From positions 11,458 to 75,457 of IMG/VR virus record IMGVR_UViG_3300028888_000115: a DNA stretch of 64,000 bases, one strand, 5' to 3'. The stretch is from a virus (lineage: Duplodnaviria; Caudoviricetes). Every line of letters begins with the position of its first letter. Position 1 is the first letter of the stretch. This document shows positions 42,560 to 61,768 of this stretch, piece after piece. The position numbers and the translations under genes are program-made. Below the pieces are notes generated by a model. The model saw nothing but the letters and a program-made list of their open reading frames with translations, was not told the origin of the DNA and made no database searches.

Positions 42560-43258
42560 ATGATTGACAAAAGAGCGATCCGAAGGTATCATAAACGGGT
42601 AGATGCGAGACTTGCAGCGAGAGGCAAACGGTTCGACGGGAACCGGTGGGAAGAAGACAAACACCCGAGAGCGAAGGACGGAAAGTTCGCCTCCGGGAAC
42701 GGCGGACCATCAAGGCAGAGCGAAAGCAAGCCAGCGGCGAATGCGGCAGGCTCGGCAAAGCCAGTTGCAAAATCGAGGATCGAGCTTGACGGACCGTCCG
42801 GAAGCAAGGGCTTTGCTGACAAGTACATGGCGTCGCATCCCGATGTCGCAAAGGAGGCCTCGAAATACAGGGGTGTCCTGAACAAGGTGAAAACCTTCAA
42901 GGCGGACGAGGACGGAACCTTCAGCGCAACAACCGGAGAAAGGCTTGACCTGACCGAAGGGTTCTGCGTTACCTTCCACCAAAACCTGAAGATCGGCGAC
43001 GAGTACGGCGCTTATGATGACGACACGTATTCCAAGATGTGTGCCATTACGAAGCACGAACTCAAGTCCAGCGATGTCTACATCGGCTATTACGGGAATC
43101 CGGAAGTTTCGTTCAATTGCCCGGATGAGAAAACGGCGATGGACTTTGCGATCAAGCATAACCAGAAGTCGATTTACAACTGCAAGACCGGAAAGACCAT
43201 TCTGAATAAGCACTACAATCCGGAGACAAATCCGATAGAGGGCGATAACGATGGCTAA
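42560..43258 (+). CDS. putative capsid-cargo protein 1; HPRxxxGKF motif; C-terminal SAM-lyase-like domain (tentative)
   Basis: AIRRYHKRVDARLAARGKRFDG leader; WEEDKHPRAKDGKF; IGYYGNPEVSF...AMDFAIKHNQKSIY. Confidence 0.6.
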   Translation: MIDKRAIRRYHKRVDARLAARGKRFDGNRWEEDKHPRAKDGKFASGNGGPSRQSESKPAANAAGSAKPVAKSRIELDGPSGSKGFADKYMASHPDVAKEASKYRGVLNKVKTFKADEDGTFSATTGERLDLTEGFCVTFHQNLKIGDEYGAYDDDTYSKMCAITKHELKSSDVYIGYYGNPEVSFNCPDEKTAMDFAIKHNQKSIYNCKTGKTILNKHYNPETNPIEGDNDG

Positions 43259-43550
43259 GATCGATATTGGAAAACTGAATGAATCCGTTTCATCCTTTGT
43301 GGAAAACCCGCATTGGAAGAAGTATCTGGAAGAAGCTCCGTCCGGCGAGTGCAAGGCGTACATCAAACTGAACTTCTATCTCAGCGACATCGAATCAGAT
43401 GGCCCGGAGAAAGACGCGGTGATCGACAAGATGAACGCCTACGAGGATAAGCTTGGCCTTGCAGACTGGAAGCACCTGCTGAAATACGCAGGGAACAATC
43501 CCTTCGCCGGTAAGTGCAAGAAGCGGATTGCAGAGCTCTCAGAACAATAA
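43251..43550 (+). CDS. small protein, putative immunity partner
   Basis: Overlaps stop of cargo 1; NPHWKKYLEEAPS. Confidence 0.6.
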   Translation: MAKIDIGKLNESVSSFVENPHWKKYLEEAPSGECKAYIKLNFYLSDIESDGPEKDAVIDKMNAYEDKLGLADWKHLLKYAGNNPFAGKCKKRIAELSEQ

Positions 43551-43599: not shown

Positions 43600-43675
43600 T
43601 GCGGCGTGGTAGCAGTGGTAGCTCGCTGCCCTCATAAGGCAGAGGTCGTTGGTTCGAATCCAACCGCCGTAACCA
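43600..43675 (+). tRNA. tRNA(CAT) (Met or Ile2)
   Basis: CTGCC-CTCATAA-GGCAG; lacks the initiator GGG/CCC pairs; CCA. Confidence 0.9.
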
Positions 43676-43826
43676 AAGGTCGGGTAGCTCCCGAATGATC
43701 TCAGTAGCTTGTCGGTGTGCCTGAGAGAGAATAACAAAGGCCTTTCTGAAAACTCCTTGCGCGTGAACGGTCGTGCGCAGGCTGGGGCGCGAGTGAGATA
43801 ATCTAAGAAGGGAAACCGCACAATAC

Positions 43827-43903
43827 AGCCCTGTGGTGCAGTTGGTGAACACGTCGGCCTGTCACGCCGAAGATCGCGGGTTCAAGTCCCGTCAGGGTTG
43901 CCA
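43827..43903 (+). tRNA. tRNA-Asp(GTC)
   Basis: Cloverleaf, G73, CCA. Confidence 0.93.
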
Positions 43904-44097
43904 ATACGTCTCATCTGAGCGTGGCACAACACAGCCTGTTGACGCAAGGGCTGCACGGGCGAAATCAGATGCCGGGGCGGGGTTACATCCCACGGAGCGT
44001 CACCGTGCTCGCAGAAACGGACTCGGTATGTCCCAAACCATCGTGAGAGTATACCTTGGATGGCACAAAGCGTTTAGAAGTGCCCGATCAGCCTTCT

Positions 44098-44182
44098 GCG
44101 CGTATCCCGGACGGTCCGGGACCAAGGACTGTGAAGAGCGTGTTCGATTCCGCGAACTCGAAGGTTCGACTCCTGACAGTGC
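44098..44182 (+). ncRNA. degenerate tRNA-like element containing CTGTGAA (His-type loop)
   Basis: 6-bp D-like hairpin, V-like hairpin, AGG-TTCGACT-CCT T-arm; no anticodon stem, no CCA. Confidence 0.35.
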
Positions 44183-44209
44183 TGGTGCAATATCAGTCCT
44201 TTTTCATAC

Positions 44210-44298
44210 GCGGAATGATGCCGTCCGGCGACGGCTGCGGCCTTGAAAACCGTGGGTAGCAGAGATGCTATGGGGGTCGGCACCTCCGTTCCGCGCCA
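44210..44298 (+). tRNA. tRNA-Ser(TGA), non-canonical 8/4 fold
   Basis: 8-bp acceptor GCGGAATG/CGTTCCGC; D-stem GCCGTC/GACGGC with CGGC loop; T-arm GGGG-GTCGGCA-CCTC; G73, CCA. Confidence 0.85.
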
Positions 44299-44301
44299 GA
44301 T

Positions 44302-44391
44302 GCAGTGTTGCCAGAGCGGTAATGGGCCCGCTTGGAAAGCGGAAGCCAGGTTGAGAAGCCTGCGAAGGTTCGATCCCTTCACGCTGCGCCA
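44302..44391 (+). tRNA. tRNA-Ser(GGA)
   Basis: Canonical class II cloverleaf, CCA. Confidence 0.92.
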
Positions 44392-44394
44392 GAT

Positions 44395-44484
44395 GCTTCG
44401 TTATGCCGGACGGCTCCGGTCCTTGCCTCGAAAGCAGAGGGTGCCCGATGAGGGCATGGGGGTCGGCACCTCAGCGAAGCGCCA
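44395..44484 (+). tRNA. tRNA-Ser(CGA), non-canonical 8/4 fold
   Basis: 8-bp acceptor GCTTCGTT/AGCGAAGC; D-stem GCCGGA/TCCGGT with CGGC loop; same T-arm; CCA. Confidence 0.85.
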
Positions 44485-44487
44485 CAT

Positions 44488-44562
44488 AGAGCTGTCGTCT
44501 AAGGGTAAGACACGAGGCTTTGACCCTCGTATGTGAAAGTTCGAGTCTTTCCGGCTCCGCCA
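44488..44562 (+). tRNA. tRNA-Gln(TTG)
   Basis: CGAGG-CTTTGAC-CCTCG; CCA. Confidence 0.92.
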
Positions 44563-44566
44563 GTAT

Positions 44567-44652
44567 GGAAGAGTGGCCGAGTTGGTCAATGGCGGCGGAC
44601 TGTAAATCCGTTGGCACTGCCTACACAGGTTCGAATCCTGTCTCTTCCACCA
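44567..44652 (+). tRNA. tRNA-Tyr(GTA)
   Basis: GCGGA-CTGTAAA-TCCGT; variable arm; CCA. Confidence 0.93.
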
Positions 44653-44655
44653 CAA

Positions 44656-44732
44656 GGTCCCATCGACTAACAGGCAAGGTCACCAGCCTTTCACGCTGGC
44701 AATGCTCGGTTCAAATCCGGCTGGGATCACCA
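44656..44732 (+). tRNA. tRNA-Glu(TTC)
   Basis: CCAGC-CTTTCAC-GCTGG; CCA. Confidence 0.92.
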
Positions 44733-44735
44733 CAT

Positions 44736-44811
44736 GGGGTCGTAGCTCAGCTGGGAGAGCGCCTGCCTTGCAAGCAGGAGGCAGAGGGTCCGAGCCCCTC
44801 CGATTCCACCA
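44736..44811 (+). tRNA. tRNA-Ala(TGC)
   Basis: G3:U70; CCTGC-CTTGCAA-GCAGG; CCA. Confidence 0.92.
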
Positions 44812-44814
44812 CAA

Positions 44815-44891
44815 GGTCTCTTCGTCTAAAAGGATAGGACGCAAGCCTCTCAAGCTTGTAATGCTGAGTTCAAGTCTCGCAGAGATCACCA
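44815..44891 (+). tRNA. tRNA-Glu(CTC)
   Basis: CAAGC-CTCTCAA-GCTTG; CCA. Confidence 0.92.
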
Positions 44892-45013
44892 GCACATCTG
44901 ACCGCCGAGGACGCGTACTCGGGAGATACCCGCAGATAGACGGAGAAGAAGCGGGGCTGAGCGGCACGGTGCAGACCCGACACCCGCAGGGTCCATGCCG
45001 CAAGCGGGTATAT

Positions 45014-45090
45014 GGCTCATTAGCTCAGTTGGTTAGAGCGCATGGCTGTTAACCATGATGTCGAAAGTTCGAGTCTTTCATGAGCCTCCA
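45014..45090 (+). tRNA. tRNA-Asn(GTT)
   Basis: CATGG-CTGTTAA-CCATG; U73; CCA. Confidence 0.92.
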
Positions 45091-45387
45091 CCAAGTGGCT
45101 GTGCTGCAGTGTTTGCATCGAAGCACCTCCTTTCGTAAATCCACACGTCTGCTGGCCGTGCTTGCGCTACGGTTGTTGGATGAAACAAAGCAGAGCCGTG
45201 AACCGGAACAACGTGCGTACTGGGAACGCACGCCGGGAAATCGGCACAATACAGAACTGTTGGCTTTGATTCCTGACTTGTACCGAAGGCTTCGGTCCCA
45301 CCGAGGCGATTGATGTAGGTAGCATCTGGGGCTCATGAAAGCCGCAGGCCCGATTAAAGCTCCGCGAGACGGGCTATCGGGCAATAC

Positions 45388-45462
45388 AGGTTGGTGGTGT
45401 AATGGCAACATGCCGGTCTCCAAAACCGTGCGATCAGGGTTCGAGTCCTTGCCTTCCTGCCA
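45388..45462 (+). tRNA. tRNA-Trp(CCA)
   Basis: CCGGT-CTCCAAA-ACCGT; G73; CCA. Confidence 0.9.
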
Positions 45463-45473
45463 AAAAAGAATAC

Positions 45474-45562
45474 GGAGCGTTGGCCGAGTTGGTAAGGCAC
45501 CGGATTGCTAATCCGTGGTTAGGGGTAACTCTACGAATGTTCGAGTCATTCACGTTCCGCCA
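45474..45562 (+). tRNA. tRNA-Ser(GCT)
   Basis: CCGGA-TTGCTAA-TCCGT; variable arm; CCA. Confidence 0.92.
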
Positions 45563-45985
45563 TTTCCGGGTAGCTGCCGGATGATGTCAGAGCAGATGCA
45601 CCAGAGGCCTGACAGAGAATATGAATGGTAGACCGACCAAAGCGGGGCGGAAGCCCTGCACAAGGCCTATGGCGGTACTACAAGTGAGGGCAACGTCGAA
45701 GGAACGCGACTGATTTGTGCGGGATGGCAAACCCACAAAAAAGAACAAACACGCCCCGCTGCGGGTGACAGCACCAAAGGAAGCTGAGACGTCCGGTTTC
45801 CGGGTCTATCACTTAAAGCGGGGAATAGGCCGAATAAAACAGGAACTTGGCCGTAGGGCAGTGAAAGTGCGAATGCGTTGTAGCTGGCTGATGATGGCAG
45901 ACAGAGCAAACGGCTGTAACGACAGGACGTGAGAATTAGCCGTCTACTGAAAGGGAAAGAAATCCCATCAAAGCTGTTTGCTCAC
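45563..45985 (+). ncRNA. large structured ncRNA, GOLLD-like (tentative)
   Basis: About 420 nt directly 3' of a tRNA, no credible gene; segments GCGGGT..CCAAAGGA, GTAGGG..GTGAAAG and terminal GGG..AATCCC..AAAGC resemble the GOLLD 3' domain as I recall it. Confidence 0.45.
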
Positions 45986-46052
45986 AATTCTATATCGGAT
46001 ACCGTCATGCCGAAAGGTGTGGCGGTATCTTTGCTTTGGGGAGAGAGCAGAA

Positions 46053-46301
46053 ATGAGTAAGTCGAAGGATATTCGCACGCTCTGCGCCTCCTGCAGAGCA
46101 GAATACGAGGAAGCCGGATTTGAACTGATCAAAGTCTGGGTGAAAAACAAAGAGGAATGTGACTGGTGCCGCGTGAGACTGGGGTGGACCTATGAAATAC
46201 GCGGAAAGAGACAACATCTTCGTAGCTCAGATGGCAAGAGCGCTGAATACTCCCAATTCAGGGGTCGCGAGTTCAAGTCTCGCCGAAGATGGACGCGATA
46301 G
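46053..46301 (+). CDS. small zinc-binding protein
   Basis: LCASC...CDWC; 3' end overlaps the tRNA-like element. Confidence 0.55.
   Translation: MSKSKDIRTLCASCRAEYEEAGFELIKVWVKNKEECDWCRVRLGWTYEIRGKRQHLRSSDGKSAEYSQFRGREFKSRRRWTR
46216..46291 (+). tRNA. tRNA-like element with 9-nt anticodon loop (TACTCCCAA), no CCA
   Basis: ATCTTCG/CGAAGAT acceptor; normal D and T arms; CTGAA/TTCAG stem. Confidence 0.65.
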
Positions 46302-47887: not shown

Positions 47888-49021
47888 GTGGATGACATTG
47901 TAAAGAAATACCGCATGCGCCGAGATGCAAGGATTGCGGCCAAAAAAGCCCACGCGGACGACCAGTGGATCACAATGCGAGGAACGCATGTCCTGATAGA
48001 CGACGGCGGGCAGGTATCAAAGGGGCCTGAAAAGCTGAAAAACGTCGTGAAGCAGGGCGGCGGGTACAAGTCAAAAGCTGACCGGAAGTACGGAAGCAGC
48101 GACAAATACAGCAAGGCGATGAATAACGGCTGGAATGTGAAACCAGCCGTGGAACAGACAAAAAGAGAACGAAGACCGCTTGCAGACATACACAAAGAGT
48201 TTGAAGACAACAGGTACCGTCTGGAAGACTCTTTGAAGAAACGCGACAAGGCCAAAGAAAACTATGAGATGAGCAATGGCAATTACGATTTGTACATGGA
48301 TGATCCGGGAACGTCTGAAGAGTTCAAAGAGATGTTCCGGAAAGACCTTGCCATGACTCAGAAAAAATATCATGAAGCAAAGAGCGAAGTAGACCGGCTT
48401 TCGGAGAAAGACAGAGCCTTGAAAAAAGAACTGTCTGAAGAGCGCGACGCGGTCAAGAAAGAAGACCAAGCGGCAATCAGGTCCGGTCCTGTGGCATACG
48501 TCAGGTCTGAAAAAGTCGTTACGGCGATTCGCGGCAACGAGAGCTTGATCAGAAAGAAAGATTACGAAAAAGGAGCTTGCGTGGACAAAAACGGCAGACT
48601 CTTGTTTGAGGCAACTGACGGCAAAGCGAGTCAGATCGACCTTGAAGCGTATAAGGACAAACTGAAAGACACCGTGTTCACGCATAACCATCCCCGGGGT
48701 TCAACACTCAGCGTGGATGACGTCAGCTGTGCCGTCGCTCATGGAATGGCGGAAGTGAGGGCTTGTCATCGAGACGGTGCATACTCTCTTGTCAGGCAGT
48801 ATTCGCTGGATGGCGAAAAGCCTGCAAATTACATGGACTTCGCTTGGGACTATCAGGAAAGCGTCGCAAAGTATGACCGCGAAGTTATCGATCCAATCTG
48901 GAGGCGTGGACCGCAGGTACAGGAAACTGCGGACAGGTGCAATAAAATGTACGACGATTACCGCCGTCTGTGGCTGGAACTGAATTCGAAGAAATACGGA
49001 TGGATTTATTCGGAGGAGTAG
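47888..49021 (+). CDS. putative capsid-cargo protein 2 with C-terminal JAB/MPN-like domain
   Basis: IVKKYRMRRDARIAAKKAHADD leader; WITMRGTHVLID motif; FTHNHPRGSTLSVDD. Confidence 0.7.
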   Translation: MDDIVKKYRMRRDARIAAKKAHADDQWITMRGTHVLIDDGGQVSKGPEKLKNVVKQGGGYKSKADRKYGSSDKYSKAMNNGWNVKPAVEQTKRERRPLADIHKEFEDNRYRLEDSLKKRDKAKENYEMSNGNYDLYMDDPGTSEEFKEMFRKDLAMTQKKYHEAKSEVDRLSEKDRALKKELSEERDAVKKEDQAAIRSGPVAYVRSEKVVTAIRGNESLIRKKDYEKGACVDKNGRLLFEATDGKASQIDLEAYKDKLKDTVFTHNHPRGSTLSVDDVSCAVAHGMAEVRACHRDGAYSLVRQYSLDGEKPANYMDFAWDYQESVAKYDREVIDPIWRRGPQVQETADRCNKMYDDYRRLWLELNSKKYGWIYSEE

Positions 49022-50136: not shown

Positions 50137-51330
50137 ATGGAGAGACATGTAGCAGCCTACAAGAGGCGCAGAGCACAAAGGCTCTGTGAGCGATACGGAT
50201 TCAGATATGACTCGTTGAATTTAGATTCAGGACTTGGCTGGCTGTTTGGTCTTGCCACGGATCTTGGAATCAAGACAAAGGGTATGAAGATTCCTGAAAT
50301 CTTCAAGGCTGTGAATGAGAAGCGTGCCCAGAAAGGGCTTGAACCTGTTGGACACAAGGGAAATGTTTCCGGAAAGAAGGGTTCATTCAAGCAGACAAGC
50401 CGGAAGGGACCGGAGGTCAATCAGTCCCTCGTGTCCAATGCGAAGGAGGAAGCCAAAAAGAATATGGCGACCTCCTACAAAACTGCGAGCGGAGCTAATT
50501 TCCCGAAGCCAAAGGCTGGCGCGAAGTTTGACAACAGTGTTATGTCCGGCGTTGAAAAGAGCGCAAAGGATCTCGGAAAAGAAAAGGAATTTGACGACAT
50601 CGTGAAGAGCCTGAAACCGACCGATTATGTCTATATGAAAGACCCCGTGACGGGTGATCAGGTTGCTTCCGTTCCTGGCTTGGCTCAGCGTTTCGATAAG
50701 ACAATGACCGGGCGGTCAGAAGAGTGCCAGAGGATCTACGACCAGAAAATCAAGAAGGGCGCACAGATCTCGAAAGACATGATTGATGCAGTCAACGGAA
50801 TCGGGTGCCGTCTGTCCGGACTGGAGAACTGCTTCAAGGGCGGCGACTCCACGTCAAGGAAGATTTCTACCAAACGCAGCGAGGCAGAAGCAAGAGGAAA
50901 AGAAACCAAGACGGACGAAGGATACACTGCTGGTTTTGGTGATATCATCCGATTCACGGCCTTGTGTGACCACGATGACATCGCAGAAACGGTGACAAAG
51001 CTGGAAAGCGCTATGCAGAAGAAGGGCTATGAGCTCAACGAAAGAGACAATAAGTGGGTTACCGGAGACGGCAGCTACAAAGGCGTGCATGTTGAATTCA
51101 TTTCTCCGACAGGCGAGCGTTTTGAGGTTCAGGTACATTCTACTGTCGCTCTGGCATTCAAAAACAAGGGTCACAGATACTACGACAATGCACGCGTGGA
51201 AGACGTGAGCACTGCGAATGGCAAGAAGCGCCACGATGCCGCCATTGAGAAATGCAAGAGCATCTGGAAGACTTGCCCGATCCCCAAAGGAATTGAGGAC
51301 CTGAAACCGATCCCCAAAAAGAAACGGTAG
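50137..51330 (+). CDS. putative capsid-cargo protein 3 with C-terminal RelA/SpoT (toxSAS-like) synthetase domain
   Basis: HVAAYKRRRAQRL..FRYDS leader; FKGGDSTSRK, GDIIRF, SYKGVH, FEVQVH, GHRYYD. Confidence 0.82.
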   Translation: MERHVAAYKRRRAQRLCERYGFRYDSLNLDSGLGWLFGLATDLGIKTKGMKIPEIFKAVNEKRAQKGLEPVGHKGNVSGKKGSFKQTSRKGPEVNQSLVSNAKEEAKKNMATSYKTASGANFPKPKAGAKFDNSVMSGVEKSAKDLGKEKEFDDIVKSLKPTDYVYMKDPVTGDQVASVPGLAQRFDKTMTGRSEECQRIYDQKIKKGAQISKDMIDAVNGIGCRLSGLENCFKGGDSTSRKISTKRSEAEARGKETKTDEGYTAGFGDIIRFTALCDHDDIAETVTKLESAMQKKGYELNERDNKWVTGDGSYKGVHVEFISPTGERFEVQVHSTVALAFKNKGHRYYDNARVEDVSTANGKKRHDAAIEKCKSIWKTCPIPKGIEDLKPIPKKKR

Positions 51331-51344: not shown

Positions 51345-51373
51345 TTGACAATGTACTAAAATTAGTGTATAAT
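51345..51373 (+). promoter_or_regulatory. consensus sigmaA promoter with operator in spacer
   Basis: TTGACA-17-TATAAT; TGTACTAAAATTAGTGTA 51352-51369. Confidence 0.85.
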
Positions 51374-51394
51374 GACCATGGAGGTGAGCGGGCT

Positions 51395-51643
51395 TTGAGT
51401 GTGAGAAAAGAAGTGTTCTATTATCAGGATCGCGATGACGATTCAGGGATTGCTCGTTCGGTTCGTGATGAGACCGGGACCGACTATCAGTTCTGGAACT
51501 ATGAGAAGCACGACTGGGTATCTCCGAAAGATTCGATTGCGATGGACTTCTGCCATGACTACGACAACACGCGCGTGATCAGTGAGGAGGAGGCAAAAAA
51601 GGCAATCGAAGAGGCTGAAAAGGAGATTGAAAGCCGAAAGTAA
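51395..51643 (+). CDS. small protein, putative antitoxin of the toxSAS
   Basis: GGAGGT RBS, TTG start; W..W...D...RVISEEEA. Confidence 0.6.
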   Translation: MSVRKEVFYYQDRDDDSGIARSVRDETGTDYQFWNYEKHDWVSPKDSIAMDFCHDYDNTRVISEEEAKKAIEEAEKEIESRK

Positions 51644-51655: not shown

Positions 51656-52075
51656 TTGATTTCGATGGTCTGGCAGGCAGAGGCCTTTGCGAAAGAAAGG
51701 CACTTTGGACAGTTTGACCGCGCCGGAGTTCCGTATATCGAGCATCCGCGTGCGGTTGCGGCGAAGGTGGACACGGATACGGAAAAGGTTGTCGCGTTCC
51801 TGCACGACACGGTGGAGGACACCAACACAACGCTGGATGAGATCCGGAACAAGTTTGGCACTGAGGTCGCGGACGCGGTTGAATGCCTGACTCACAAAAA
51901 GGGTGTTCCGTATATGGAATACGTCAAGGGAATCAAAACGAACGACCTTGCGCGGAGGGTGAAACTGGCGGACCTGAGCCACAACATGGATCTGAGCCGT
52001 CTGCCGAAGGTGACCGATGCAGACCTGAAGCGCGTGGAGAAATATAAGGCTGCTTACGACTTTCTGGTCGAGTAA
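51656..52075 (+). CDS. small alarmone hydrolase (Mesh1/SAH-type HD protein)
   Basis: H.GQFDRAGVPYIEHP, AFLHDTVEDT, VKLADLSHN. Confidence 0.9.
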   Translation: MISMVWQAEAFAKERHFGQFDRAGVPYIEHPRAVAAKVDTDTEKVVAFLHDTVEDTNTTLDEIRNKFGTEVADAVECLTHKKGVPYMEYVKGIKTNDLARRVKLADLSHNMDLSRLPKVTDADLKRVEKYKAAYDFLVE

Positions 52076-52170: not shown

Positions 52171-53886
52171 ATGGAAAAGAGCCGAGCGAAAGCGATTGCG
52201 GACTACCGCAGGAGAAGAATACAACGGCTGAGAGCCAGGTTCGACGATGATAACGACGAGAACAATGCCCCGGCACCGGCTGGCGGGCATGGAAATACAA
52301 AACTTCCGTTCGGACTTTGCCGGAGGGAAGGCATCAAGGTAGACCCGACATGGACCCCGAAGGATGCGTGGAATGCTCTGGAAGGCAAGGGATACTCTGC
52401 CAAGGAAGCCTATAAAGAACTGAAGGAAACCGGCAAGGTGGCTCCGAGAGCACCGCAGAAACCGGTGAGGACTCCTGCTGAGATCAAGAAGATGGGCAAG
52501 TCCGTTTCCGACCTGAAGAAGGCTATGAAGAAGCGGGATAAGCTCGAAAAGGACCTTTCGACGGCCAACGTCGAGATTTCGAGAGCGATTAACACCAAAA
52601 CGAGGTATGAGTCCGCATCCGAAAAGTACAAGAAGATGGCCGACGAGATGGTCCAAAAGTACGGTTCCGAAGAAAACATCCCTTCAAAAAGAGAGGGAGA
52701 ATACGGCTATCCTCCTTTGGCGAGCTATCAACTGTATCGTGACAACGAGAGAAGCTATGCCAAGGACGCCGAGAACATTGGAAAGACGCTCCCAGACCTG
52801 ATGCGGAAGCACGAGGATATTCAGAAACAGTTGGCTGAGTATCCGAGCAAAGAAGATCACAAGAAACAGTATGATCAGGCGGTTGACGACCTGCTGTCCA
52901 GTTCGCCGTACACCGACAAGGTGCGAGACTATAGAACAATCGAGGAAGAGTCAGAAGGCGCGAGGGTGATTCTGGAAGAGGCAAAGAAAAAGGTCTCATA
53001 CGCCCAATCGCATATCGAGTTCTATGAGTCGATGGCCCGGAGAGCAAGAGAACGTGGAGACGAGGAAACCGCGAAGTTCTATGAGGGCAACGGTCTTGCT
53101 TCCAACAGAAAGCTTCTCGAAGTCAATCAGGCCAATGTCGACAAGTACTCCAAACAGGTCGAGGACTATGACAGACGGATGAACGAGGCAAAGGGCGACG
53201 CTGCGGACAAGGACTGGAAGCAGATTTATGAGCTTTCGGTCGAGAAAGACACCGTGCAGGATGGACCATACACCGAGCTTGAAAGAGCGGCTGAATCTCT
53301 GTCAAGGGAAAAGGTCAAATACGTTAATCCGGTCAAGTATATGACTCCGCCGTCAGAGGAGAAGATCATCTTCGACCTGCGCGGCAGTGACAAGACAAGC
53401 GGCTCCTGCGCTTCTCTGGCGTTTGCCTATTTCGTAAACAAGTCCGGATACAGGGTGCTTGACTTCCGTGGCGGAGCATCACGACGGTTCTTCTCGTATA
53501 ACTGCGGTGATGTGATCCGGAGACTTGGCGGAACGGTCACACACGACAGCGACGGCTTCAAAATCGCAAAAGACCATCTTTCGCAGGTGGAAGAGGGCAA
53601 GGAGTACTATTTCGCGGCAGGAAAGCATGCTGCGGTTGTCAGAAAGAAAAACGGAAAGCTTGAGTTCCTTGAACTGCAAGACAGAACTGGCGGATGGGAA
53701 GAGCTCAATGACTCCGTTCTCAAACAGCGGTTCAAGGTCAAAAGGACCAGTCGTCGCGGCAGTGAGTATTCGTATCTGATCAGCGGAGACAAGCTGACCG
53801 GAAATAAAGAGCTTATTTCCCTGACGGGATATATCAATACGGCATCGGACAAGCAGAAGAAAGGCGCTGGGGGTGGTATCAAGTGA
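52171..53886 (+). CDS. putative capsid-cargo protein 4 with C-terminal papain-like cysteine peptidase domain
   Basis: AIADYRRRRIQRLRARFDD leader; GHGNTKLPFGLC module; GSCASLAFAY..VLDFRGG..GKHAAVV..LELQ. Confidence 0.75.
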   Translation: MEKSRAKAIADYRRRRIQRLRARFDDDNDENNAPAPAGGHGNTKLPFGLCRREGIKVDPTWTPKDAWNALEGKGYSAKEAYKELKETGKVAPRAPQKPVRTPAEIKKMGKSVSDLKKAMKKRDKLEKDLSTANVEISRAINTKTRYESASEKYKKMADEMVQKYGSEENIPSKREGEYGYPPLASYQLYRDNERSYAKDAENIGKTLPDLMRKHEDIQKQLAEYPSKEDHKKQYDQAVDDLLSSSPYTDKVRDYRTIEEESEGARVILEEAKKKVSYAQSHIEFYESMARRARERGDEETAKFYEGNGLASNRKLLEVNQANVDKYSKQVEDYDRRMNEAKGDAADKDWKQIYELSVEKDTVQDGPYTELERAAESLSREKVKYVNPVKYMTPPSEEKIIFDLRGSDKTSGSCASLAFAYFVNKSGYRVLDFRGGASRRFFSYNCGDVIRRLGGTVTHDSDGFKIAKDHLSQVEEGKEYYFAAGKHAAVVRKKNGKLEFLELQDRTGGWEELNDSVLKQRFKVKRTSRRGSEYSYLISGDKLTGNKELISLTGYINTASDKQKKGAGGGIK

Positions 53887-54164
53887 AGCGGATCTACAAG
53901 GAGAACAAGGACGACAAGGTTTGGTGGCTGGACAATGAGAAAGCGATTGGAGAATTCGCCTTTACGCTTGACAAGAAAACGTTCTACAATCTGTTTGCGG
54001 ACTATCCGGACAAACTGTCCGTGCAGGACTGGATCACGTTCAATGAGGAGAACGAGTATTGGGTGAAGTTCTTCAAAGAGAGGAACGAGGACTATGTGAT
54101 GAAGCACGCCGAAGAGCTTGAGAAGCTTGGGCGTGAAGACCTGATCAGGGCAATCATGAGCTGA
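53883..54164 (+). CDS. putative immunity protein
   Basis: GTGA overlap; DKVWWLDN..IGEF.F..DKK..YNLFADYP..N.YW..FF, a family I recall downstream of MuF toxin genes. Confidence 0.7.
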   Translation: MKRIYKENKDDKVWWLDNEKAIGEFAFTLDKKTFYNLFADYPDKLSVQDWITFNEENEYWVKFFKERNEDYVMKHAEELEKLGREDLIRAIMS

Positions 54165-54262
54165 GCAGGGTATCCGGCAGCAAAGAAGAGGGAGAATTAA
54201 ATACGTATCTTAGACGTCACTGAAAGGTGGCGTCTTTTTTATATCCAGGAGGAGCAAACAAA

Positions 54263-54964: not shown

Positions 54965-54970
54965 TGACCG

Positions 54971-56377
54971 ATGGCGACAAGGACTCTGCGTCCCCAAGAA
55001 GGTCCGCAGACGGCTTTTCTTGCCAGTTCGGCTTCTGTAACCATATATGGCGGAGCTGCGGGCGGAGGAAAGACCTACGCCGAGCTTTTGGCACCGCTGA
55101 GATACAAGGACGTCAAGGGCTTTAACTATACCATTTTCAGACGCGAGTATAAGCAGATCTTCAACGCTGGCGCACTCTGGGACGAGGCGATGGAGATGTA
55201 CTCCGGAATCAGGAGGGCCGTGCCGAAGTACACGACCGGTCAATGGCTGTTCCGGGACAAAAAGGGAAGCGTCGTATCGAAGATTACCTTCGCCCACATT
55301 GAGAACGACCTTGCGGTCCACACCTATCAGGGCTCACAGCTCTGCGGCATTGCTTTTGACGAGCTGACGCACTTCACGGAAAAGCAGTTCTTCTATATGC
55401 TGACCCGTAACAGAAGTACCTGCGGCGTGCCTCCGTTCGTGCTGGCGACAACGAACCCGGATGCGGACTCTTGGGTGGCTGAATTCATCTCATGGTGGAT
55501 TGATCAGGTAACTGGCTATGCGATCCCGGAGAGAAGCGGTGTGATTCGCTGGATGGTCCGAATTGACGACAAGGTCAGATGGGGCGATTCCCGGGAAGAA
55601 CTGATAGAGACCTATCACCTGACTACCAAAGAAGAACTGGCGATGATCAAGTCGGTGACCTTCATTGCTTCGAGCATCTATGACAACAAGGCCCTTCTGA
55701 AATCTGACCCGTCCTACCTTGGCAACCTGATGATGCAGCCGGAAGTCGAAAGAGAAAGACTTCTCAAAGGAAACTGGAAAATCAAGGCGGCAGCGGGACT
55801 CTACTTCAAACGCTCTCAGGTTACGATGGTGGATGAAGATCCATTGATGATGAGGGAGATTGTCCTGACGTGCAGAGCGTGGGACCTTGCGGCAACAGAA
55901 GACGACGCGGCAAAAGACCCGGACTACACGGCTGGCGTCCTGATGGGCCGATTCAGGAGCGGAGAAGTGATTGTTCTGGATGTGATCAATCAGAGAGTCA
56001 AGGCTGGCGAGGTCGAAAAGCTGATCTACAACACGACCGTAGCGGATGCGCAGAAATACGGCTTTGCCTACAGAGTCCGTATCCCTCAAGACCCGGGTGC
56101 GGCAGGAAAGATCGTTGCAAATTCCTACGTGCAGAAGCTTTCCGGGTACTCCGTGATCACGGAGAGGGTAACCGGAAGCAAGGTCAACAGGGCAACGCCG
56201 TTTGCGGCCCAGTGGCAGAACGGACACGTAAAGGTTTTGAAGGGCGAGTGGAATGATATGTACTTCAAGCAACTTGAGTCATTCCCAGAATCCAAGCACG
56301 ACGATATGGTCGACGGTAGCTCTGACTCTTTCAACGAACTGAGCAAGCCGCTGTTTGACCCGAGCAATCTCATATAA
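54971..56377 (+). CDS. terL: terminase large subunit
   Basis: YGGAAGGGKT, AFDELTHF, ATTNP, RAWDLAA, HDDMVD. Confidence 0.95.
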   Translation: MATRTLRPQEGPQTAFLASSASVTIYGGAAGGGKTYAELLAPLRYKDVKGFNYTIFRREYKQIFNAGALWDEAMEMYSGIRRAVPKYTTGQWLFRDKKGSVVSKITFAHIENDLAVHTYQGSQLCGIAFDELTHFTEKQFFYMLTRNRSTCGVPPFVLATTNPDADSWVAEFISWWIDQVTGYAIPERSGVIRWMVRIDDKVRWGDSREELIETYHLTTKEELAMIKSVTFIASSIYDNKALLKSDPSYLGNLMMQPEVERERLLKGNWKIKAAAGLYFKRSQVTMVDEDPLMMREIVLTCRAWDLAATEDDAAKDPDYTAGVLMGRFRSGEVIVLDVINQRVKAGEVEKLIYNTTVADAQKYGFAYRVRIPQDPGAAGKIVANSYVQKLSGYSVITERVTGSKVNRATPFAAQWQNGHVKVLKGEWNDMYFKQLESFPESKHDDMVDGSSDSFNELSKPLFDPSNLI

Positions 56378-56402
56378 TTCTTTTGTAAGGTTGGTGTATC
56401 TG

Positions 56403-57965
56403 ATGGCCGACAAAGATGCGATTAGACGATACAAGCAAAGACGCGACGCCAGACTTGGCTTCAAGACATCCATGCACTATGACAGCGTGGACGAGTACAG
56501 GAGACGCCGCGCGGAACGTCTTGGAATCCGCCTTGACGCCGATGACGATGAAAACAAGGGTGGGACGGGAAGACGCGGCGGCGGTCATGGAAACACCAAG
56601 ATCCCCTTTGGGCTTTGCCAGAGAGAAGGGATTGAGGTAAAGCCCGGATGGACACCGCAAGACGCATGGAACGCCTTGGAGGGCAAGGGCTATTCTGCTG
56701 GTGAGTCATACAAGGAACTGAAAGAGACAGGGAAGGTCTCAAAGAAAGCGGGCGGAACGTCCAAGACTGCTGCGCCGGGGAAGAAAGACTATGTAGCGAT
56801 GGACTATGATACCATTGCCAAGGAGTACGAGGACCACAACCGCCGTTATAAGGAGTCAGAAGAAAAGTACCGGAACAAAGGAAAGAGCATAAAGGCGATC
56901 AATGCGATGGCAAACCGCATCAAGACCATGAAGGAGCGCGGCGACTATCACGGAGAGAGCTATGAAGAGCTTGAAAAGGCTGCAAACCAAGATCCGTCTG
57001 ACCTTGACGGAGACTCTTTTGCCCGGTACTATGCGCAGACCTTTGCGAAGAAGGCAATGGACATGTTCGGTCGCGATGTTTTTTCAAAGAGTGATGACGA
57101 AGTTGCCAAGATGGCGGCGGAGAGAGTGGAAGAGCTTGAAAGCATCAACTTTGCAACGCTTAACGAGGAGCGTGCCGCGATCCAGAAGGCGATGACCGAA
57201 AAGGCAAAAGAGAAGTATCCGAATATATCCGATTGTGATACGCCAATTGCGCTTGAGGCAAGAATGCGCGGCGACGACTTCTTCCAGACCGGAGACCTCC
57301 TGTCCGGCACGATGGCTTATCATGCACTTGACACAAAAACGATCGGCGGCATCGGAAAGGCGATGGATGGCATTAAGCAGAAGTTCCCGGAACTGAAAGG
57401 GAAACTGCATCCCTTCCTCGTAGGCGATGATGTGGAGGCAAATGCGTATGCCCACTGCGAAATCAGCGCGTGGAGCGATGCGCAGGTTGTTTTGAGCAGC
57501 AAGAGATTCGGCGACGGTGAGAAGCTTCAGGAGAGCCTGAAGAACGACGTGAAGGAAGGCTTCCATCCGAGAGGGACGGCAAGCTTTGAGGCGGTTGTTA
57601 CTCACGAGTACGGTCACGCAATCGACGACTGGCTGAGCAAAACGTACAAGGAAGAGCTTGGCGGAAAGCCGTTCTGCCAATATGTGATCGGCAGGATCAT
57701 GGAAAACCACCCGCATGAGGATAAATACAGTATCATGCGGAAGGTGAGCAAGTATGCGGTAAACAACAAGTCTCCTGAAGGAATGGAGTTCCTTGGTGAG
57801 GCGTTTTCGGAATACTGCTGCGCAAAGAAGCCGAGACCTATTGCAATGGAAGTGGGGCAGATTATGAAAGAGTTCATCCAAAACCCAAAGAGTGCTCTTG
57901 AACCGAAAAAGCCCAAGTGGACGTTTGCGCCGCCAGACGACGAAGACGACGCCCCACTGTTTTAA
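56403..57965 (+). CDS. putative capsid-cargo protein 5 with C-terminal zincin metallopeptidase domain
   Basis: Two tandem leader copies; GHGNTKIPFGLC module; THEYGHAID; SKYA...EFLGEAF. Confidence 0.78.
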   Translation: MADKDAIRRYKQRRDARLGFKTSMHYDSVDEYRRRRAERLGIRLDADDDENKGGTGRRGGGHGNTKIPFGLCQREGIEVKPGWTPQDAWNALEGKGYSAGESYKELKETGKVSKKAGGTSKTAAPGKKDYVAMDYDTIAKEYEDHNRRYKESEEKYRNKGKSIKAINAMANRIKTMKERGDYHGESYEELEKAANQDPSDLDGDSFARYYAQTFAKKAMDMFGRDVFSKSDDEVAKMAAERVEELESINFATLNEERAAIQKAMTEKAKEKYPNISDCDTPIALEARMRGDDFFQTGDLLSGTMAYHALDTKTIGGIGKAMDGIKQKFPELKGKLHPFLVGDDVEANAYAHCEISAWSDAQVVLSSKRFGDGEKLQESLKNDVKEGFHPRGTASFEAVVTHEYGHAIDDWLSKTYKEELGGKPFCQYVIGRIMENHPHEDKYSIMRKVSKYAVNNKSPEGMEFLGEAFSEYCCAKKPRPIAMEVGQIMKEFIQNPKSALEPKKPKWTFAPPDDEDDAPLF

Positions 57966-58036
57966 TTTAAGAAACCGAAAAAGTGGCTGGTCTGCGGATC
58001 AGCCTCTTTTTGTCGTTATACAGGGAGGAATAAGCA

Positions 58037-61000
58037 ATGGATACTCTCGCAATTGCTCTGTACCGGCAGCGAAGGGAAGAACGCCTTGCTGCGCGTGGGA
58101 TCAGAGTCAAGAAAAGGCAGTACCGAAAATCCAAGGACCTGAAAAAACTGGATAAACAGCCTCCGGTGCCGACCTTCCGGAAAGACGCAGACGGAGACGA
58201 TGATCAGCAGAACGAGCAGAAGCGAGGCGGTGGCGGCGGTCACGGTAATACGAAGCTTCCGTTCGGCCTGTGCCAGAAATACGGCATCGAGATCGGCGAT
58301 GGATGGACGCCAAAGGACGCGTGGGATGCTTTGGCCGGTAAAGGTGTGACTCCCGGAGAAATTTACCGGAAACTGAGAGCAGGCGAAGAGATCGGTCCGG
58401 ATATCAAGACGGAGCCGCCGAAGAAAGATCCGGTCAAGACCATTGACGGTTCCGGTGGCAAATACTATCTCAAAGACCTGAAGGCACGTCAGACTTGGGG
58501 CTATCGTGGCGAAAGGCCGTGGGCTCTGGAAGGAACGCCAGAGTGGCGTGATGATGTGCCGGAAGACGAAAGACACGGATATCGGTCTACATGGCTTGGC
58601 AGATTCGCAACGCTGACAGACATGTATTACTTCCTGAAAAGGAAGGGCGTGGAAGAGTTCATGGACCCTGAGACAGGAGAACTGGTGAATCCGGTCGAGA
58701 TGGAGCTTCCGACCATGCTTTATTCGGACGGCGAGCGTGGATACAGCGCTATGGCGATCGGTATGAAGAAGGACCTGTATGCGATCACCGGCACTGACTT
58801 CATGGGCAAAAAGCGAGCTGTGAAGGAGTTCCGGTCTCTGGAAGACGCGAAGCAGTGGCTTGAGCGTCACGGCGTTTCCGAGGATGACGTGAAACTGTCT
58901 CCCGCACTCAAAAAGAGAGAGACCGAACGTCTGAGCTGGCTGACTTCCGACAAAAAAGAATACGTGGAGGTCGACGGCGTCAGATACGGCGACCTGAGAA
59001 TGCAGAAAGAGCGCTATGGCGGATGGTATGAGTTGTTCGGCGAAGATGAGGACGGACGACAGAAGAAACTGAGCTTCTCATCCAAGACCGAACTGCTGAA
59101 ATACCTGAAGGATCAGGGCGTCGAGAAGGTCAGAGACCAAGACAAGAGCATTGTGAATCCGACCGAACTGGATATTCCGGATGCTCTGGTGAAAATCGAC
59201 AACACATCTTATCAGAGCTTCGAGTACCAGCTTAGAGGCGGAGACCTGATGCTTTACGGCACAGATCTGGACGGAGAAACACACTCCATCGACTACATGA
59301 GGAAGTACGAGACCTTCGAGGCCTTCAGAGAGAGGATGGCCGAAAAGGGCATCGAGTCCGACGACTGGATCAGCGAAGACGACGAAGTCAAGGAGCATAT
59401 CAAGAGAGTCAAAAAGGAGCAGGAGGATCAGGAACGCCGGAGGAAGGAGTTCCCGAGCAAGGCAGTTCCGGTTCTTGGCGGCATGTACATGGAGCCGAAA
59501 CTGGTTTGGAACGGTCCCGGCAGTTCTTTGGAACTGAGAGGATACGACAGCTACGGCAGAGACTATTGCATCGCCACGCAGAGCAACATGGCTGACATGA
59601 TCGACCTGATGGAAAAGAACGGGCTGAATCCGGGCGACCTTATCAAGGACCATGAGCTTCGGGCGGAATACGACCGCATTGACAAGATCAGGAAAGACTT
59701 TGACGCTACGGCGGAAGACTTCGGATCTGGCAAGTATGCGGATATCTCTGTTTCTGTGGATAGTCTCGGGGAATACCGCCTTGTTGGATACGAGAGAAGC
59801 GGCAAGCTGCGCAGACTCACCTACGGCGGCGACATGTATTCTCTCACGGACCAGATGGAAAAGGGCGGTATCACAGATATCGACAAGTACATCAAGGACG
59901 ACAAGATCCGTCAGGAGTACGAGACCTTCAAAAAGCGTATTGCAGAGTTCGAGCAGAAGGCAATCGATATCGACGGCTACAGACTGTCAGACGTTGAAGT
60001 TGTGGCAGCGGATGACCCCGGCAAGTTCAAGGTGATCGGCTACGACAAGAAGGGCAGCAGAAAAACAATGTCCATGAGCACGGACATGTATTCCACGGTT
60101 CGGTATGCCAAGTCGAGAGGATTGAATGTTGAAGACTTCATCAAGCAGCCGGAGGTCAAGCAGGCTTATCAGGAGTACAAGAAGATTCAGGAGAAGTTCG
60201 ATTCTGAGGCCAAGGACTTCGGCGGCGAAAAGTATCTGGACCTGAAAATGGAGTATGACAGTGACGGATGGTACCGTCTGAAGGGCACAGATATCCGAGG
60301 CAGACGCAAAACGATTGTCGAATCCACAAGCGCCTACACGATGGACGAGAAGCTCAAGACCTCCGGCATGAGCAGCGACCTGACGATAGATTCCTTTGAT
60401 CCTTCCGAGAGTATGAAGGAGCGGAAGAAGGTCCTGCAAAAGGCCAAAGACGCGGTTGCGAGCGGCGAGTATTATGATATGGGCGTTGACGGGCAGGCCT
60501 TTAAGTCTATCCACGCGGACAAGATCGGCGACAAGTGGTCCATCAAGGGTATCGACATTGACGGAAAGGAAAAGCAGATTACCGAGACCTCCGACTGGGA
60601 CGAAACGGTAGACACCCTTGAAAAGTTCAATGTTAAGGACTACAAGCTTCTGACAAAAGACGGGACCTACGGAAGACCTGCGGACGGCATGCGTCATGTG
60701 ATGCTGCTGAGGGGAACAGACGGATCGTTCCGGGTATATGCGGACAGCGCGTCCAAAGGAACGCACGCTGAGGTGTACTCCACGACGACCGAGGAAGCAG
60801 CCAAACAATGGCTTCGAGATAACAATGTGGATACCGGCAGCATCAAGACCAGAGGAATGAATCCGAACGACGATGCGCCGAGAAGCCACACCCAGCCGTC
60901 CCTGAGCAAGTTCGATGTGTACCGCATGGACCGGATCAGCAAGAGCTATATCGACGACCTGACAGCCGATGAAAAGAGCGAGATCGCCGAAATGCTGACA

Positions 61001-61768
61001 ACGGTATTTCAGACGGGAGCTTATCGTGTAGCGAGAAGCACATCGAGCTTCGGCGCGATCATCGAGAACGGCTATAAGAGCCAAGTAGAAACCGGCAAAG
61101 GCGGTTCCGGTGCTGCGCAGGACAAGGAACTCAGAAAGAAAGCCTCCAAAATCTTCTACGGTCACGATGGCCTTGACGACAAGGATTATGAGAAGTGCGG
61201 CTATATCGGATTTGCGGATGAAGCGGAAGACTGGGACGACAGTGCACATCCGGGCTATGGCGGCAGAAGCCCCCTGACCTACACCTTGCGGAAAGACACT
61301 ATGAAGGACCGCACGACCTACACCTACGGCGATTCACTGAATACGAGACGCTGGATGGCCTGCGCTGGCTATGCCGGGGACAAGCCGACAATCGAGGGCA
61401 TGTCTGCATTGGACAGCGACTACTACGTCAAGAATGCTCTGGAATCCTACCGAAGGTACAAGAACGGCGAGATCAGCTACAAGGAAATGTTCGATGATAT
61501 CCGAAGGTATGCAAACAACGGGTACATTGAACTTCAATTCCACGGCCCCGTTACGGTTGCGGATATCGAGAAGGTCTCTTTCAACAGCAAGAAGGATCTG
61601 GAAGCGGCGTTCAACAAAATGTCCGACACCCGCAGAAAGAAAGTCATCGGACTGCTGCGCCAGAACGGAGTCCAGTTGATCTATCGAGAGAACAGACGAA
61701 GCGAATTTCAGGACGCTTGGGAATGGATAAAAGATCAATATCCAGGTGACTTTTCGGCAGAAGTGTGA
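58037..61768 (+). CDS. putative capsid-cargo protein 6 (1243 aa): leader, about 9 internal repeats, C-terminal ART-fold (DUF3626-like) domain
   Basis: AIALYRQRREERL..RKDA; GHGNTKLPFGLC; YKSQVETG..RTTYTYGDSLN..YIELQFHGPVTVADIEKV. Confidence 0.7.
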   Translation: MDTLAIALYRQRREERLAARGIRVKKRQYRKSKDLKKLDKQPPVPTFRKDADGDDDQQNEQKRGGGGGHGNTKLPFGLCQKYGIEIGDGWTPKDAWDALAGKGVTPGEIYRKLRAGEEIGPDIKTEPPKKDPVKTIDGSGGKYYLKDLKARQTWGYRGERPWALEGTPEWRDDVPEDERHGYRSTWLGRFATLTDMYYFLKRKGVEEFMDPETGELVNPVEMELPTMLYSDGERGYSAMAIGMKKDLYAITGTDFMGKKRAVKEFRSLEDAKQWLERHGVSEDDVKLSPALKKRETERLSWLTSDKKEYVEVDGVRYGDLRMQKERYGGWYELFGEDEDGRQKKLSFSSKTELLKYLKDQGVEKVRDQDKSIVNPTELDIPDALVKIDNTSYQSFEYQLRGGDLMLYGTDLDGETHSIDYMRKYETFEAFRERMAEKGIESDDWISEDDEVKEHIKRVKKEQEDQERRRKEFPSKAVPVLGGMYMEPKLVWNGPGSSLELRGYDSYGRDYCIATQSNMADMIDLMEKNGLNPGDLIKDHELRAEYDRIDKIRKDFDATAEDFGSGKYADISVSVDSLGEYRLVGYERSGKLRRLTYGGDMYSLTDQMEKGGITDIDKYIKDDKIRQEYETFKKRIAEFEQKAIDIDGYRLSDVEVVAADDPGKFKVIGYDKKGSRKTMSMSTDMYSTVRYAKSRGLNVEDFIKQPEVKQAYQEYKKIQEKFDSEAKDFGGEKYLDLKMEYDSDGWYRLKGTDIRGRRKTIVESTSAYTMDEKLKTSGMSSDLTIDSFDPSESMKERKKVLQKAKDAVASGEYYDMGVDGQAFKSIHADKIGDKWSIKGIDIDGKEKQITETSDWDETVDTLEKFNVKDYKLLTKDGTYGRPADGMRHVMLLRGTDGSFRVYADSASKGTHAEVYSTTTEEAAKQWLRDNNVDTGSIKTRGMNPNDDAPRSHTQPSLSKFDVYRMDRISKSYIDDLTADEKSEIAEMLTTVFQTGAYRVARSTSSFGAIIENGYKSQVETGKGGSGAAQDKELRKKASKIFYGHDGLDDKDYEKCGYIGFADEAEDWDDSAHPGYGGRSPLTYTLRKDTMKDRTTYTYGDSLNTRRWMACAGYAGDKPTIEGMSALDSDYYVKNALESYRRYKNGEISYKEMFDDIRRYANNGYIELQFHGPVTVADIEKVSFNSKKDLEAAFNKMSDTRRKKVIGLLRQNGVQLIYRENRRSEFQDAWEWIKDQYPGDFSAEV

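Follow-up and report, generated by a model that had tools for sequence, protein, structure and literature searches.

Phage-injected protein cargo is known from few models, namely the internal proteins of T4, the phiKZ-like giant phages, MuF and portal fusions, and Dar of P1. How phages other than T4 choose what they load is, to our knowledge, largely unexplained. Here we describe six genes, A to F, in a 64,000-nucleotide stretch of tailed-phage DNA (hereafter the window; positions 11,458 to 75,457 of IMG/VR record IMGVR_UViG_3300028888_000115, Caudoviricetes), whose products begin with the same short arginine-rich leader and carry different C-terminal domains. We propose that all six are cargo inside the head of a large, uncultured myophage of gut or rumen, as would be at least two more leader proteins encoded just past the window and a polyvalent protein, p1451. 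The leader probably lets the phage load at least eight swappable toxin-like enzymes into its capsid and inject them with its DNA, and we lean towards reading it as a T4-style capsid-targeting propeptide that carries polymorphic toxin-immunity cassettes.

Known kinds of system are combined in this locus: capsid-targeted internal proteins, MuF toxins and polyvalent proteins. The literature that we searched yielded no description of the leader itself. In T4, a capsid-targeting sequence (CTS) of 10 residues at the N-terminus loads unrelated cargo (PMC9026906). The CTS of T4 IPI-III and Alt, together with gp21, and the propeptides of phiKZ, 201phi2-1 and SPN3US resemble the leader in being short N-terminal tags on unrelated proteins. 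There, too, a three-residue motif with an acidic last residue stands at the end of the tag and recurs in capsid, portal-vertex and scaffold/protease proteins, and phiKZ has several candidate sites per propeptide, as we see here (PMC9026906). A protease of the gp21/assemblin fold and host-modifying enzymes among the putative cargo are further traits shared with T4. In contrast to the T4 tag, the present one is an unrelated Arg-rich helix of 18-27 residues, often doubled, and appears to be a recognisable copy of a scaffold/protease helix. The proposed cleavage motif has Asp at P1 and Arg or His at P3 where the T4 and phiKZ types have L/I/S/A-x-Glu, the putative cargo takes the form of polymorphic toxin-immunity cassettes, and the head genes are of the DUF2184/DUF1073/DUF2213 type, not T4-like.

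MuF toxins (Jamet et al. 2017, PMC5576092) share payload and partner families with our locus (the D-type domain with DUF7675, small alarmone synthetase (SAS) with an Aph1-like hydrolase, and JAB). They likewise lie beside terminase and portal genes and set variable C-termini on a constant N-terminus. The constant part here, however, is a leader of at most 30 residues plus a small adaptor, with no MuF domain; a genome holds at least eight such proteins rather than one, and MuF is a separate protein without a toxin. Apk2, a Tis1-like gene and Aph1 make up the three-gene layout of one MuF toxin (PMC10083569), and C, the small open reading frame (ORF) behind it and an HD hydrolase reproduce this gene order. 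The role of MuF toxins is still an open question (PMC10083569). Polyvalent proteins (Iyer et al. 2017, PMC5512222) contain the same domains, including lethal-factor-like zincins, ADP-ribosyltransferases (ARTs), RelA/SpoT, papain-like domains and NUDIX on the portal, and packaging and injection are predicted for them as they are here. p1451 uses the same modules. Unlike in polyvalent proteins, most of the domains in our locus sit in separate genes with a leader each, and none of A to F matches a Pfam 'PolyVal' model.

One leader on six different proteins

A regular-expression search for Y[RKH].R[RV]..R[LI] in the six-frame translation of the window gave exactly seven matches. All lie on the + strand and all are at the N-termini of A to F, with two tandem copies in E; shuffled window sequence gave 0.1 matches. 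A preliminary description, made by a model from the letters of the window, had noted a shared motif in these six ORFs, and the count bears it out. The leader is an amphipathic, Arg-rich helix with the consensus (D)A[VI]xxY[RK]xRRxxRL, present once or twice per protein, and the junction behind it reads R-[MFL]-D-[AD], followed by acidic residues. Homologues place the start of E at ATG 56403 rather than TTG 56355; the probable starts of A and C are 42560 and 50137.

Does the conservation reside in the DNA or in the protein? Four to five different codons, some of them CGN and some AGR, encode the invariant Arg positions, and DNA identity between paralogous leaders reaches only 44%. Conservation therefore acts at the protein level, and the leaders are poor substrates for recombination within the genome. 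On this codon evidence we rejected the idea of an element that acts as DNA or RNA and that of a handle for recombination.

Between the leader with its junction and the payload there is usually a small adaptor module. D, E and F share a segment of about 50 residues, GGHGNTK-[LI]PFGLC..GI...WTPxDAW.AL.GKG (the GHGNTK module), of which C has a diverged version. In an AlphaFold2 (AF2) model of E (pLDDT 87.5) the leaders are helices, and the GHGNTK module forms three short helices behind a disordered acidic/glycine-rich linker. A has the conserved post-leader motif E-D-K-H-P-R-x-x-D-G-K-F (window 42640-42700) and B the motif W-[IVK]-T-x-[KR]-G-T-H-V-[LM]-[IV]-D-D-x-G (window 47960-48030), the latter also found twice in p1451 and in many metagenomic proteins; both motifs would sit close to the new N-terminus if cleavage happens. 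Another N-terminal segment of about 50 residues (approximately ..I..EL..L..EYK......L...I..L), ending in R-E-D/A or R-N-D/G, heads p273 (a gene just past the portal), p1451 and several metagenomic proteins (P0071, P0089, P0116). It may be another class of targeting leader. None of A to F matched a Pfam family at E <= 0.01, MuF included, in keeping with the earlier statement that none of the six shows a MuF domain.

The window's contig is a 75.5-kb fragment that ends within the portal gene. Two related IMG/VR genomes supplied the context: G001 (146 kb), whose DNA identity to the window's contig is 96-97%, and G003 (159 kb), whose portal is 77% identical to the window portal. With a leader profile built from cargo N-termini only, all six-frame matches above 12 bits in these two genomes lie on the coding strand and in the block from terminase to protease.

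Scaffold helix, prohead protease and the R-x-D motif

To which phage proteins is the leader related? Past the window's end, G001 encodes a DUF2213 protein of 523 aa that matches phrog_530 'head maturation protease' (E 8.6e-72). The N-domain of its AF2 model superimposes on T4 gp21 (5jbl; Z 10.0, root-mean-square deviation 3.0, 135 of 165 residues), the next relevant structural match being the protease of a herpesvirus, varicella-zoster virus (Z 6.8). We used this protease to collect 78 viral contigs with 67 distinct protease sequences. The cargo-only leader profile matches the DUF2213 protease/scaffold itself in 33 of the 67 relatives, at a fixed place (residues ~205-245) and with 12-28.7 bits, compared with 5.5 bits for the best of 1340 shuffled proteases. 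The matched segment, approximately R-R-A-D-G-V-L-S-P-E-E-L-x-K-A-I-E-A-Y-K-A-R-R-A-E-R-L-A-A-K-A-D-E, has a long acidic linker behind it. In the reverse direction, when 391,016 residues of six-frame translation were searched with a profile built from the protease segments only, the top-ranking stretches were 14 cargo leaders of G001 and G003. The AF2 model of the G001 protease shows the equivalent segment as a helix (residues 202-216) between two disordered stretches, behind the beta-rich N-domain. This reciprocal similarity, which the preliminary description did not contain, suggests that the leader is a copy of the helix heading the scaffold part of the phage family's DUF2213 protease/scaffold. 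Net acidity of the scaffold linker showed no correlation with leader matches nearby (p = 0.23), a comparison confounded by 6-kb flanks that miss the cargo genes of large phages.

Could the Arg-rich helix and the three-helix module instead bind nucleic acid, the proteins being a paralogous family with DNA/RNA binding in common that acts in the infected or producing cell, or coats phage DNA, with no specific loading? The leader helix is strongly basic, and the MuF protein of SPP1, gp7, binds DNA (PMC10083569). The repeat region of F matches Ish1 weakly (E 0.0045, under the Pfam threshold). Ish1 is, we take it, a helix-extended-helix (HeH) family, and the second module and the F repeats look HeH/SAP-like. 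We nevertheless consider nucleic-acid binding improbable, as it leaves unexplained the same helix in the protease/scaffold, the restriction of leaders to the head module, the leaders with R-x-D at junctions, and the attached toxin-immunity cassettes, which are typical of packaged MuF toxins.

The second element of the leader is the R-x-D motif at its end. [RH]xD[SAGD] occurs within 14 aa past the last leader in 98 of 122 leader proteins, with the logo R-[MFL]-D-[AD]-acidic; its density past leaders is 53 per 1000 aa, 31-fold above the 1.7 in the rest of the same proteins. Over the whole of G001, head and leader proteins carry 3.6 motifs per 1000 aa and other proteins 0.99 (3.6-fold), and non-head ORFs are at compositional expectation. 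Among about 70 relatives, R-x-D is conserved at the boundary between the variable N-terminal extension and the core of the major capsid protein, portal, MuF and protease. The capsid protein has [RH]-F-D-S ten residues ahead of FFARELD, MuF carries a conserved R-x-D-[AD], and the portal has FRGD/G at residues 64-68, where FRGDG had already been noticed in the preliminary description. R-x-D also stands immediately ahead of the leader-like helix in many proteases and at internal junctions of p1451. In the models, the protease sites (8-11 and 195-198) lie in disordered stretches flanking folded parts, and those of E lie at the ends of leader helices in disordered or boundary segments.

These in silico patterns support the view that R-x-D behaves like a prohead-protease site. 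Proteases of the gp21 group, in T4 and in giant phages, cleave behind an acidic residue within X-x-E motifs (PMC9026906). The preliminary description had taken the basic helix for a capsid-import signal and RxD for a maturation-protease site. Confinement to head genes, R-x-D enrichment and the gp21-like fold of the protease are consistent with both; packaging, cleavage and injection we infer from them. We found no description of the cleavage specificity of DUF2213 proteases in the literature; the structure papers on E217 and XM1, which have related capsid families, report the first 65 and 30 capsid residues, respectively, as missing from the maps and do not name a site. For polyvalent proteins, autoprocessing by their zincin domains has been proposed (Iyer et al., PMC5512222). 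The leader and R-x-D at polyvalent junctions suggest processing by the prohead protease, and not only such autoprocessing.

Several points weigh against a capsid-targeting propeptide cut at R-x-D. The cleavage site and the effector target, like packaging and injection, are deduced for an uncultured phage known from sequence. In the clade to which the window belongs, the leader-like helix of the scaffold is degenerate. Arg-rich helices also bind nucleic acids. Faecalibacterium phage FP_Brigit has the same set of portal, protease and capsid genes, and no leader cargo was found in the 17 head-module coding sequences scanned; the leader system would therefore be an add-on. Some capsid proteins have N-F-D-D in place of R-F-D-S. 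In the most distant protease group R-x-D lies at residues 3-6, where cleavage would remove almost nothing, so that the motif may be a structural element of the protease N-terminus. Finally, T4 gp21 cuts after Glu in L/I-x-E and the phiKZ protease in S/A-x-E (PMC9026906). Asp at P1 is not cleaved by T4 gp21 (PMC9026906), so that a protease specific for Asp would depart from the T4 type.

Payloads, partner genes and their exchange

The features of the cargo region are collected in Table 1.

Table 1. Proposed cargo, partner and landmark genes (window positions; a slash marks the proposed cleavage position)
Feature	Position	Strand	Remarks
Cargo A	42560..43258	+	leader helix and RFD/G ~42575-42640, then EDKHPRxxDGKF; payload ~150 aa
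Candidate partner/immunity ORF of A	43251..43550	+	99 aa; overlaps A stop codon; no family match
Cargo B	47888..49021	+	leader ~47897-47962; W-I-T-x-R-G-T-H-V-L-I-D-D module; coiled region; C-terminal JAB/JAMM (HNHPxG..S..D)
Cargo C	50137..51330	+	leader and RYD/S ~50146-50214; diverged second module; C-terminal small-alarmone-synthetase domain
Promoter-like site	51345..51373	+	TTGACA-17-TATAAT, 12/12, consensus match only; just past C stop, before C partners
Candidate second immunity ORF of C	51365..51643	+	up to 92 aa; between C and hydrolase
HD-domain Aph1-type (p)ppApp hydrolase, immunity partner of C	51656..52075	+	Pfam HD_4, E 3e-9
Cargo D	52171..53886	+	leader and RFD/D ~52192-52248; GHGNTK module ~52282-52440; coiled coil; papain-like domain ~residues 385-571
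DUF7675 protein, partner/immunity of D	53883..54164	+	Pfam PF24723, E 2e-22; overlaps D stop codon
Large terminase	54971..56377	+	Pfam Terminase_6N, Terminase_6C; head-module landmark
Cargo E	56403..57965	+	two leaders, ~56418-56486 (HYD/S) and ~56487-56540 (RLD/A); GHGNTK module ~56577-56738; helical region; C-terminal HExxH zincin
Cargo F	58037..61768	+	leader ~58049-58108; RKD/A ~58178-58189; GHGNTK module ~58226-58390; ~110-aa tandem repeats; C-terminal DUF3626
Candidate partner ORF of F	61792..62154	+	120 aa; directly behind F-type payloads in at least 8 related contigs
Portal (Phage_portal_3/DUF1073)	62332..64000	+	cut at window's end; Pfam E 8e-73

The payloads are polymorphic toxin-type enzymes: a synthetase, a papain-like protein, a JAB protein, a zincin and a DUF3626 protein. 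For B to E the labels given in the preliminary description stood. The sequence of the B C-terminus supports a JAB/JAMM assignment: its family numbers at least 702 proteins and has an invariant H-x-H...S..D, and in 34 sequences H66, H68, S75 and D78 never vary and E18 and E27 hardly do. B itself stays under the Pfam thresholds; three of its homologues match RadC (1.3e-6) and one Prok-JAB. Residues 192-395 of C match PDB 8vx3 'SaSAS' (E 1.3e-7), which supports a RelA/SpoT-type alarmone synthetase, presumably of the (p)ppApp/(p)ppGpp type, and C also matches the C-terminal part of the profile phrog_7625 'head morphogenesis'. D is supported as papain-like: its last 190 residues have Gln_amidase and SpvD as papain-fold atlas neighbours.

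The zincin of E (motif HEYGH) was assigned through its model, which supports the anthrax lethal factor/PPEP (M34-like) type. It superimposes on the catalytic domain of anthrax lethal factor (1yqy) with a VIA Z of 11.2 over 182 residues and on PPEP-3 and PPEP-2 (9g0j, 6fpc) with Z 8.0 and 7.6. A Foldseek search with the whole E model gave weak matches only (E > 0.3), and E does not match Pfam MPTase-PolyVal. It does match phrog_324 'head morphogenesis', in the C-terminal part of that profile. Lethal-factor-like zincins have been reported in polyvalent proteins (Iyer et al. 2017, PMC5512222).

For F and A the labels fared less well. The ART-like label of F is supported only through the DUF3626 family: the C-terminus of F scores E 0.028 against Pfam DUF3626 (PF12294), under the cut-off, its homologue P0129 (50% identical) carries PF12294, and its atlas neighbours are DUF3626 and OspC. 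DUF3626 is, we assume, the family of SopF, which we take to be an ADP-ribosyltransferase. The middle of F (window 58337-60886) consists of about eight tandem repeats of ~110 aa each with [KR]xG[ILV]xxxDxI. A had been called SAM-lyase-like, a label that we could not support: Pfam (E <= 10), NCBIfam and a PDB sequence search offered nothing usable for its payload. An orthologue of A is present in G003 and in four other contigs.

In related contigs, each A-, C-, D- or F-type payload comes with its partner gene behind it. The 99-aa ORF is always directly 3' of A-type payloads in five other contigs, the HD hydrolase follows every C-type payload in the relatives, and the DUF7675 ORF every complete D-type payload. 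Over its full length the hydrolase matches PDB 7smg '(p)ppApp hydrolase' (E 1.7e-27). The small ORF between C and the hydrolase has a counterpart at the same place in G003 (50% identity) and no family or PDB match. The preliminary description had counted immunity-like ORFs behind five of the six genes. Linked partners are present for A, C, D and F; in the comparison of related contigs, the 91-aa ORF downstream of B has no detectable relative and E has no partner gene. Promoter-like sites precede the partners of C and F, so that these may be transcribed apart from the toxins; the site in front of the F partner (61746-61774; 10/12 with TG) lies just 5' of that ORF. Overall, promoter-like sites are no more numerous than in shuffles.

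Polymorphic-toxin architecture with immunity genes, and separate promoter-like sites ahead of two partner genes, would also fit toxins that are released at lysis for bacterial competition, with the leader as a recombination handle or as a domain for trafficking by another route. We regard this as very improbable. The segment behind the leader, read by eye, is acidic or glycine-rich and holds no hydrophobic stretch, and lysis release does not explain the similarity to the scaffold helix or the confinement to the head module.

Beyond the portal, G001 continues with p273, p260, a MuF-only gene, p544, p1451, the DUF2213 protease, a cement protein and a PF09950 capsid protein. Two of these encode leader proteins outside the window: p260 (260 aa; leader and GHGNTK module) and p544 (544 aa; two leaders). 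p260 is homologous to the first 300 residues of F (33-35% identity). The 1451 residues of p1451 (L028:9409-13764) are built of cargo modules in three parts: a W-V-T-x-x-G-T-H-V module with an R-S-ExE-like domain; RFD/ADEE with a GHGNTK module, a coiled coil and an E-like zincin; and RHD/AADD with a W-V-T module and a second zincin. In relatives, too, the leader occurs inside polyvalent proteins and, in one contig, between a portal domain and a NUDIX domain. The full-length portal of G001 (L028:1658-4075) has 805 aa and a C-terminal NUDIX domain at residues 656-762; portal-NUDIX fusions have been described previously (PMC9503650). The portal of FP_Brigit carries an extra domain that corresponds to the C-terminus of p273 (273 aa, L028:4140-4961), a separate protein in G001.

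Is the system independent of MuF, as the preliminary description had it? A to F show no MuF domain, yet the system may depend on MuF in trans, and the claim is unproven. A MuF-only protein of 313 aa (Phage_Mu_F, E 1.7e-16), without a toxin, is encoded ~4 kb past the window's end beside a leader protein, and in every relative examined a GHGNTK-type leader protein lies immediately upstream of it. The cargo might dock in trans on MuF or portal, the way toxins fused to MuF do in cis, the likeness to the scaffold helix being incidental and R-x-D marking the start of an acidic linker rather than a cleavage site. Payloads of the same types as those of B, C, D and E are fused elsewhere to the C-termini of MuF proteins, as had been claimed for several of them. 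Phage_Mu_F was found on nine of 33 sampled homologues of the B JAB domain, and XkdF protease on five. Streptococcus phages and Butyrivibrio virus Ceridwen have MuF ('minor capsid') proteins whose C-terminal ends share 33-46% identity with the D payload; in Streptococcus phage Javan215 and in Ceridwen this domain is the C-terminus of the annotated MuF/minor-capsid gene, followed by small ORFs 44-48% identical to the DUF7675 partner of D. Leader-like segments are fused to the portal C-terminus in phrog_15528 and one relative, and the R-x-D-[AD] of MuF itself could be cited in the same sense. Against docking, a metagenome search with the N-module of E returned 118 near-length and 7 longer proteins, and Phage_Mu_F (PF04233) is absent from all 125. 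The reciprocal similarity of the leader is to the scaffold/protease, not to MuF, and both the enrichment of R-x-D and its conserved position across procapsid proteins are hard to understand as a linker property. A predicted complex of MuF with residues 1-115 of E scored 0.00, which counts neither way. We therefore hold docking on MuF or portal to be unlikely, and prefer the capsid-targeting propeptide.

Modules and payloads are exchanged freely. When G001 is compared with G003, only the N-terminal 53-108 aa of B, D, E, p273 and p544 are conserved, the remainder having been swapped, whereas conservation extends over the whole of C, F and p260. At the position of E, G003 has an ORF of 64 aa that consists of two leader units only (reverse complement 39672-39866 = L008:13249-13443); it may be the remnant of a cargo gene or else a leader peptide that stands alone. 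The ~125 GHGNTK-module proteins carry at least 10 clusters of C-terminal payloads, obtained by clustering the last 170 aa (single linkage over the whole region merged everything through coiled coils). The N-module of B (leader and W-I-T module) bears at least five unrelated C-termini, and payloads of the JAB, papain-like, zincin, DUF3626 and SAS types are each seen on more than one N-module. Pfam scans of 98 GHGNTK-module proteins gave no informative family. The commonest payload on this module (P0021-type, 50 of 125) takes up the C-terminal ~300 residues; it has no Pfam match, and none of the payloads of D, E and F corresponds to it.

All genes of the window are on the + strand, with 14 tRNA genes among them. 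Between 42.5 and 64 kb lie, besides the cargo genes, two ParB-like genes, GNAT, ThyX, a possible small terminase, the large terminase and the DUF1073 portal. The tRNA genes are at window 43600-46292 and 37011-37175, and twelve of them stand in a row that separates cargo A from the ParB genes. An ADP-ribosyl-hydrolase-like gene of the DraG/Tri1 type (window 35441-36250; NCBIfam E 3e-14, under the equivalog cut-off) is a possible eraser for an ART-like payload, such as that of F or the R-S-ExE-like domain of p1451. GenBank holds no close phage, the best match to the capsid protein being FP_Brigit at 53%; GenBank phage searches with A and E gave no matches, and megablast of an 11.8-kb segment (window 52171-64000) gave only trivial Streptococcus matches.

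Proposed loading and release, and their significance

How might a capsid-targeting propeptide of this kind work? During procapsid assembly, the leader would draw the cargo into the scaffold core by making the same contacts as the scaffold helix. Cleavage by the gp21-like protease after the Asp of [RH]-x-D would then free the payloads inside the head, from which they would exit with the DNA at infection. The Aph1-like hydrolase, DUF7675 and the other partner genes would keep the payloads harmless in the producing cell.

More tentatively, and with somewhat less than even confidence, we suggest that a helix of the scaffold/protease has been turned into a portable capsid-loading tag of defined sequence with a built-in protease release site, so that any enzyme bearing the tag becomes injected cargo in a combinatorial, MuF-free manner. 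Were this true, a virion would carry many different toxin or anti-defence payloads, each having acquired the tag through recombination, and the cutting of polyvalent proteins into units inside the head would be explained.

A loading rule consisting of a scaffold-derived helix and R-x-D would be testable in a widespread group of gut and rumen phages. It would connect prohead-protease processing with both the polymorphic toxin cassettes and the polyvalent proteins, and it would provide a sequence signature for spotting, in metagenomes, virion-delivered effectors that Pfam leaves unannotated.

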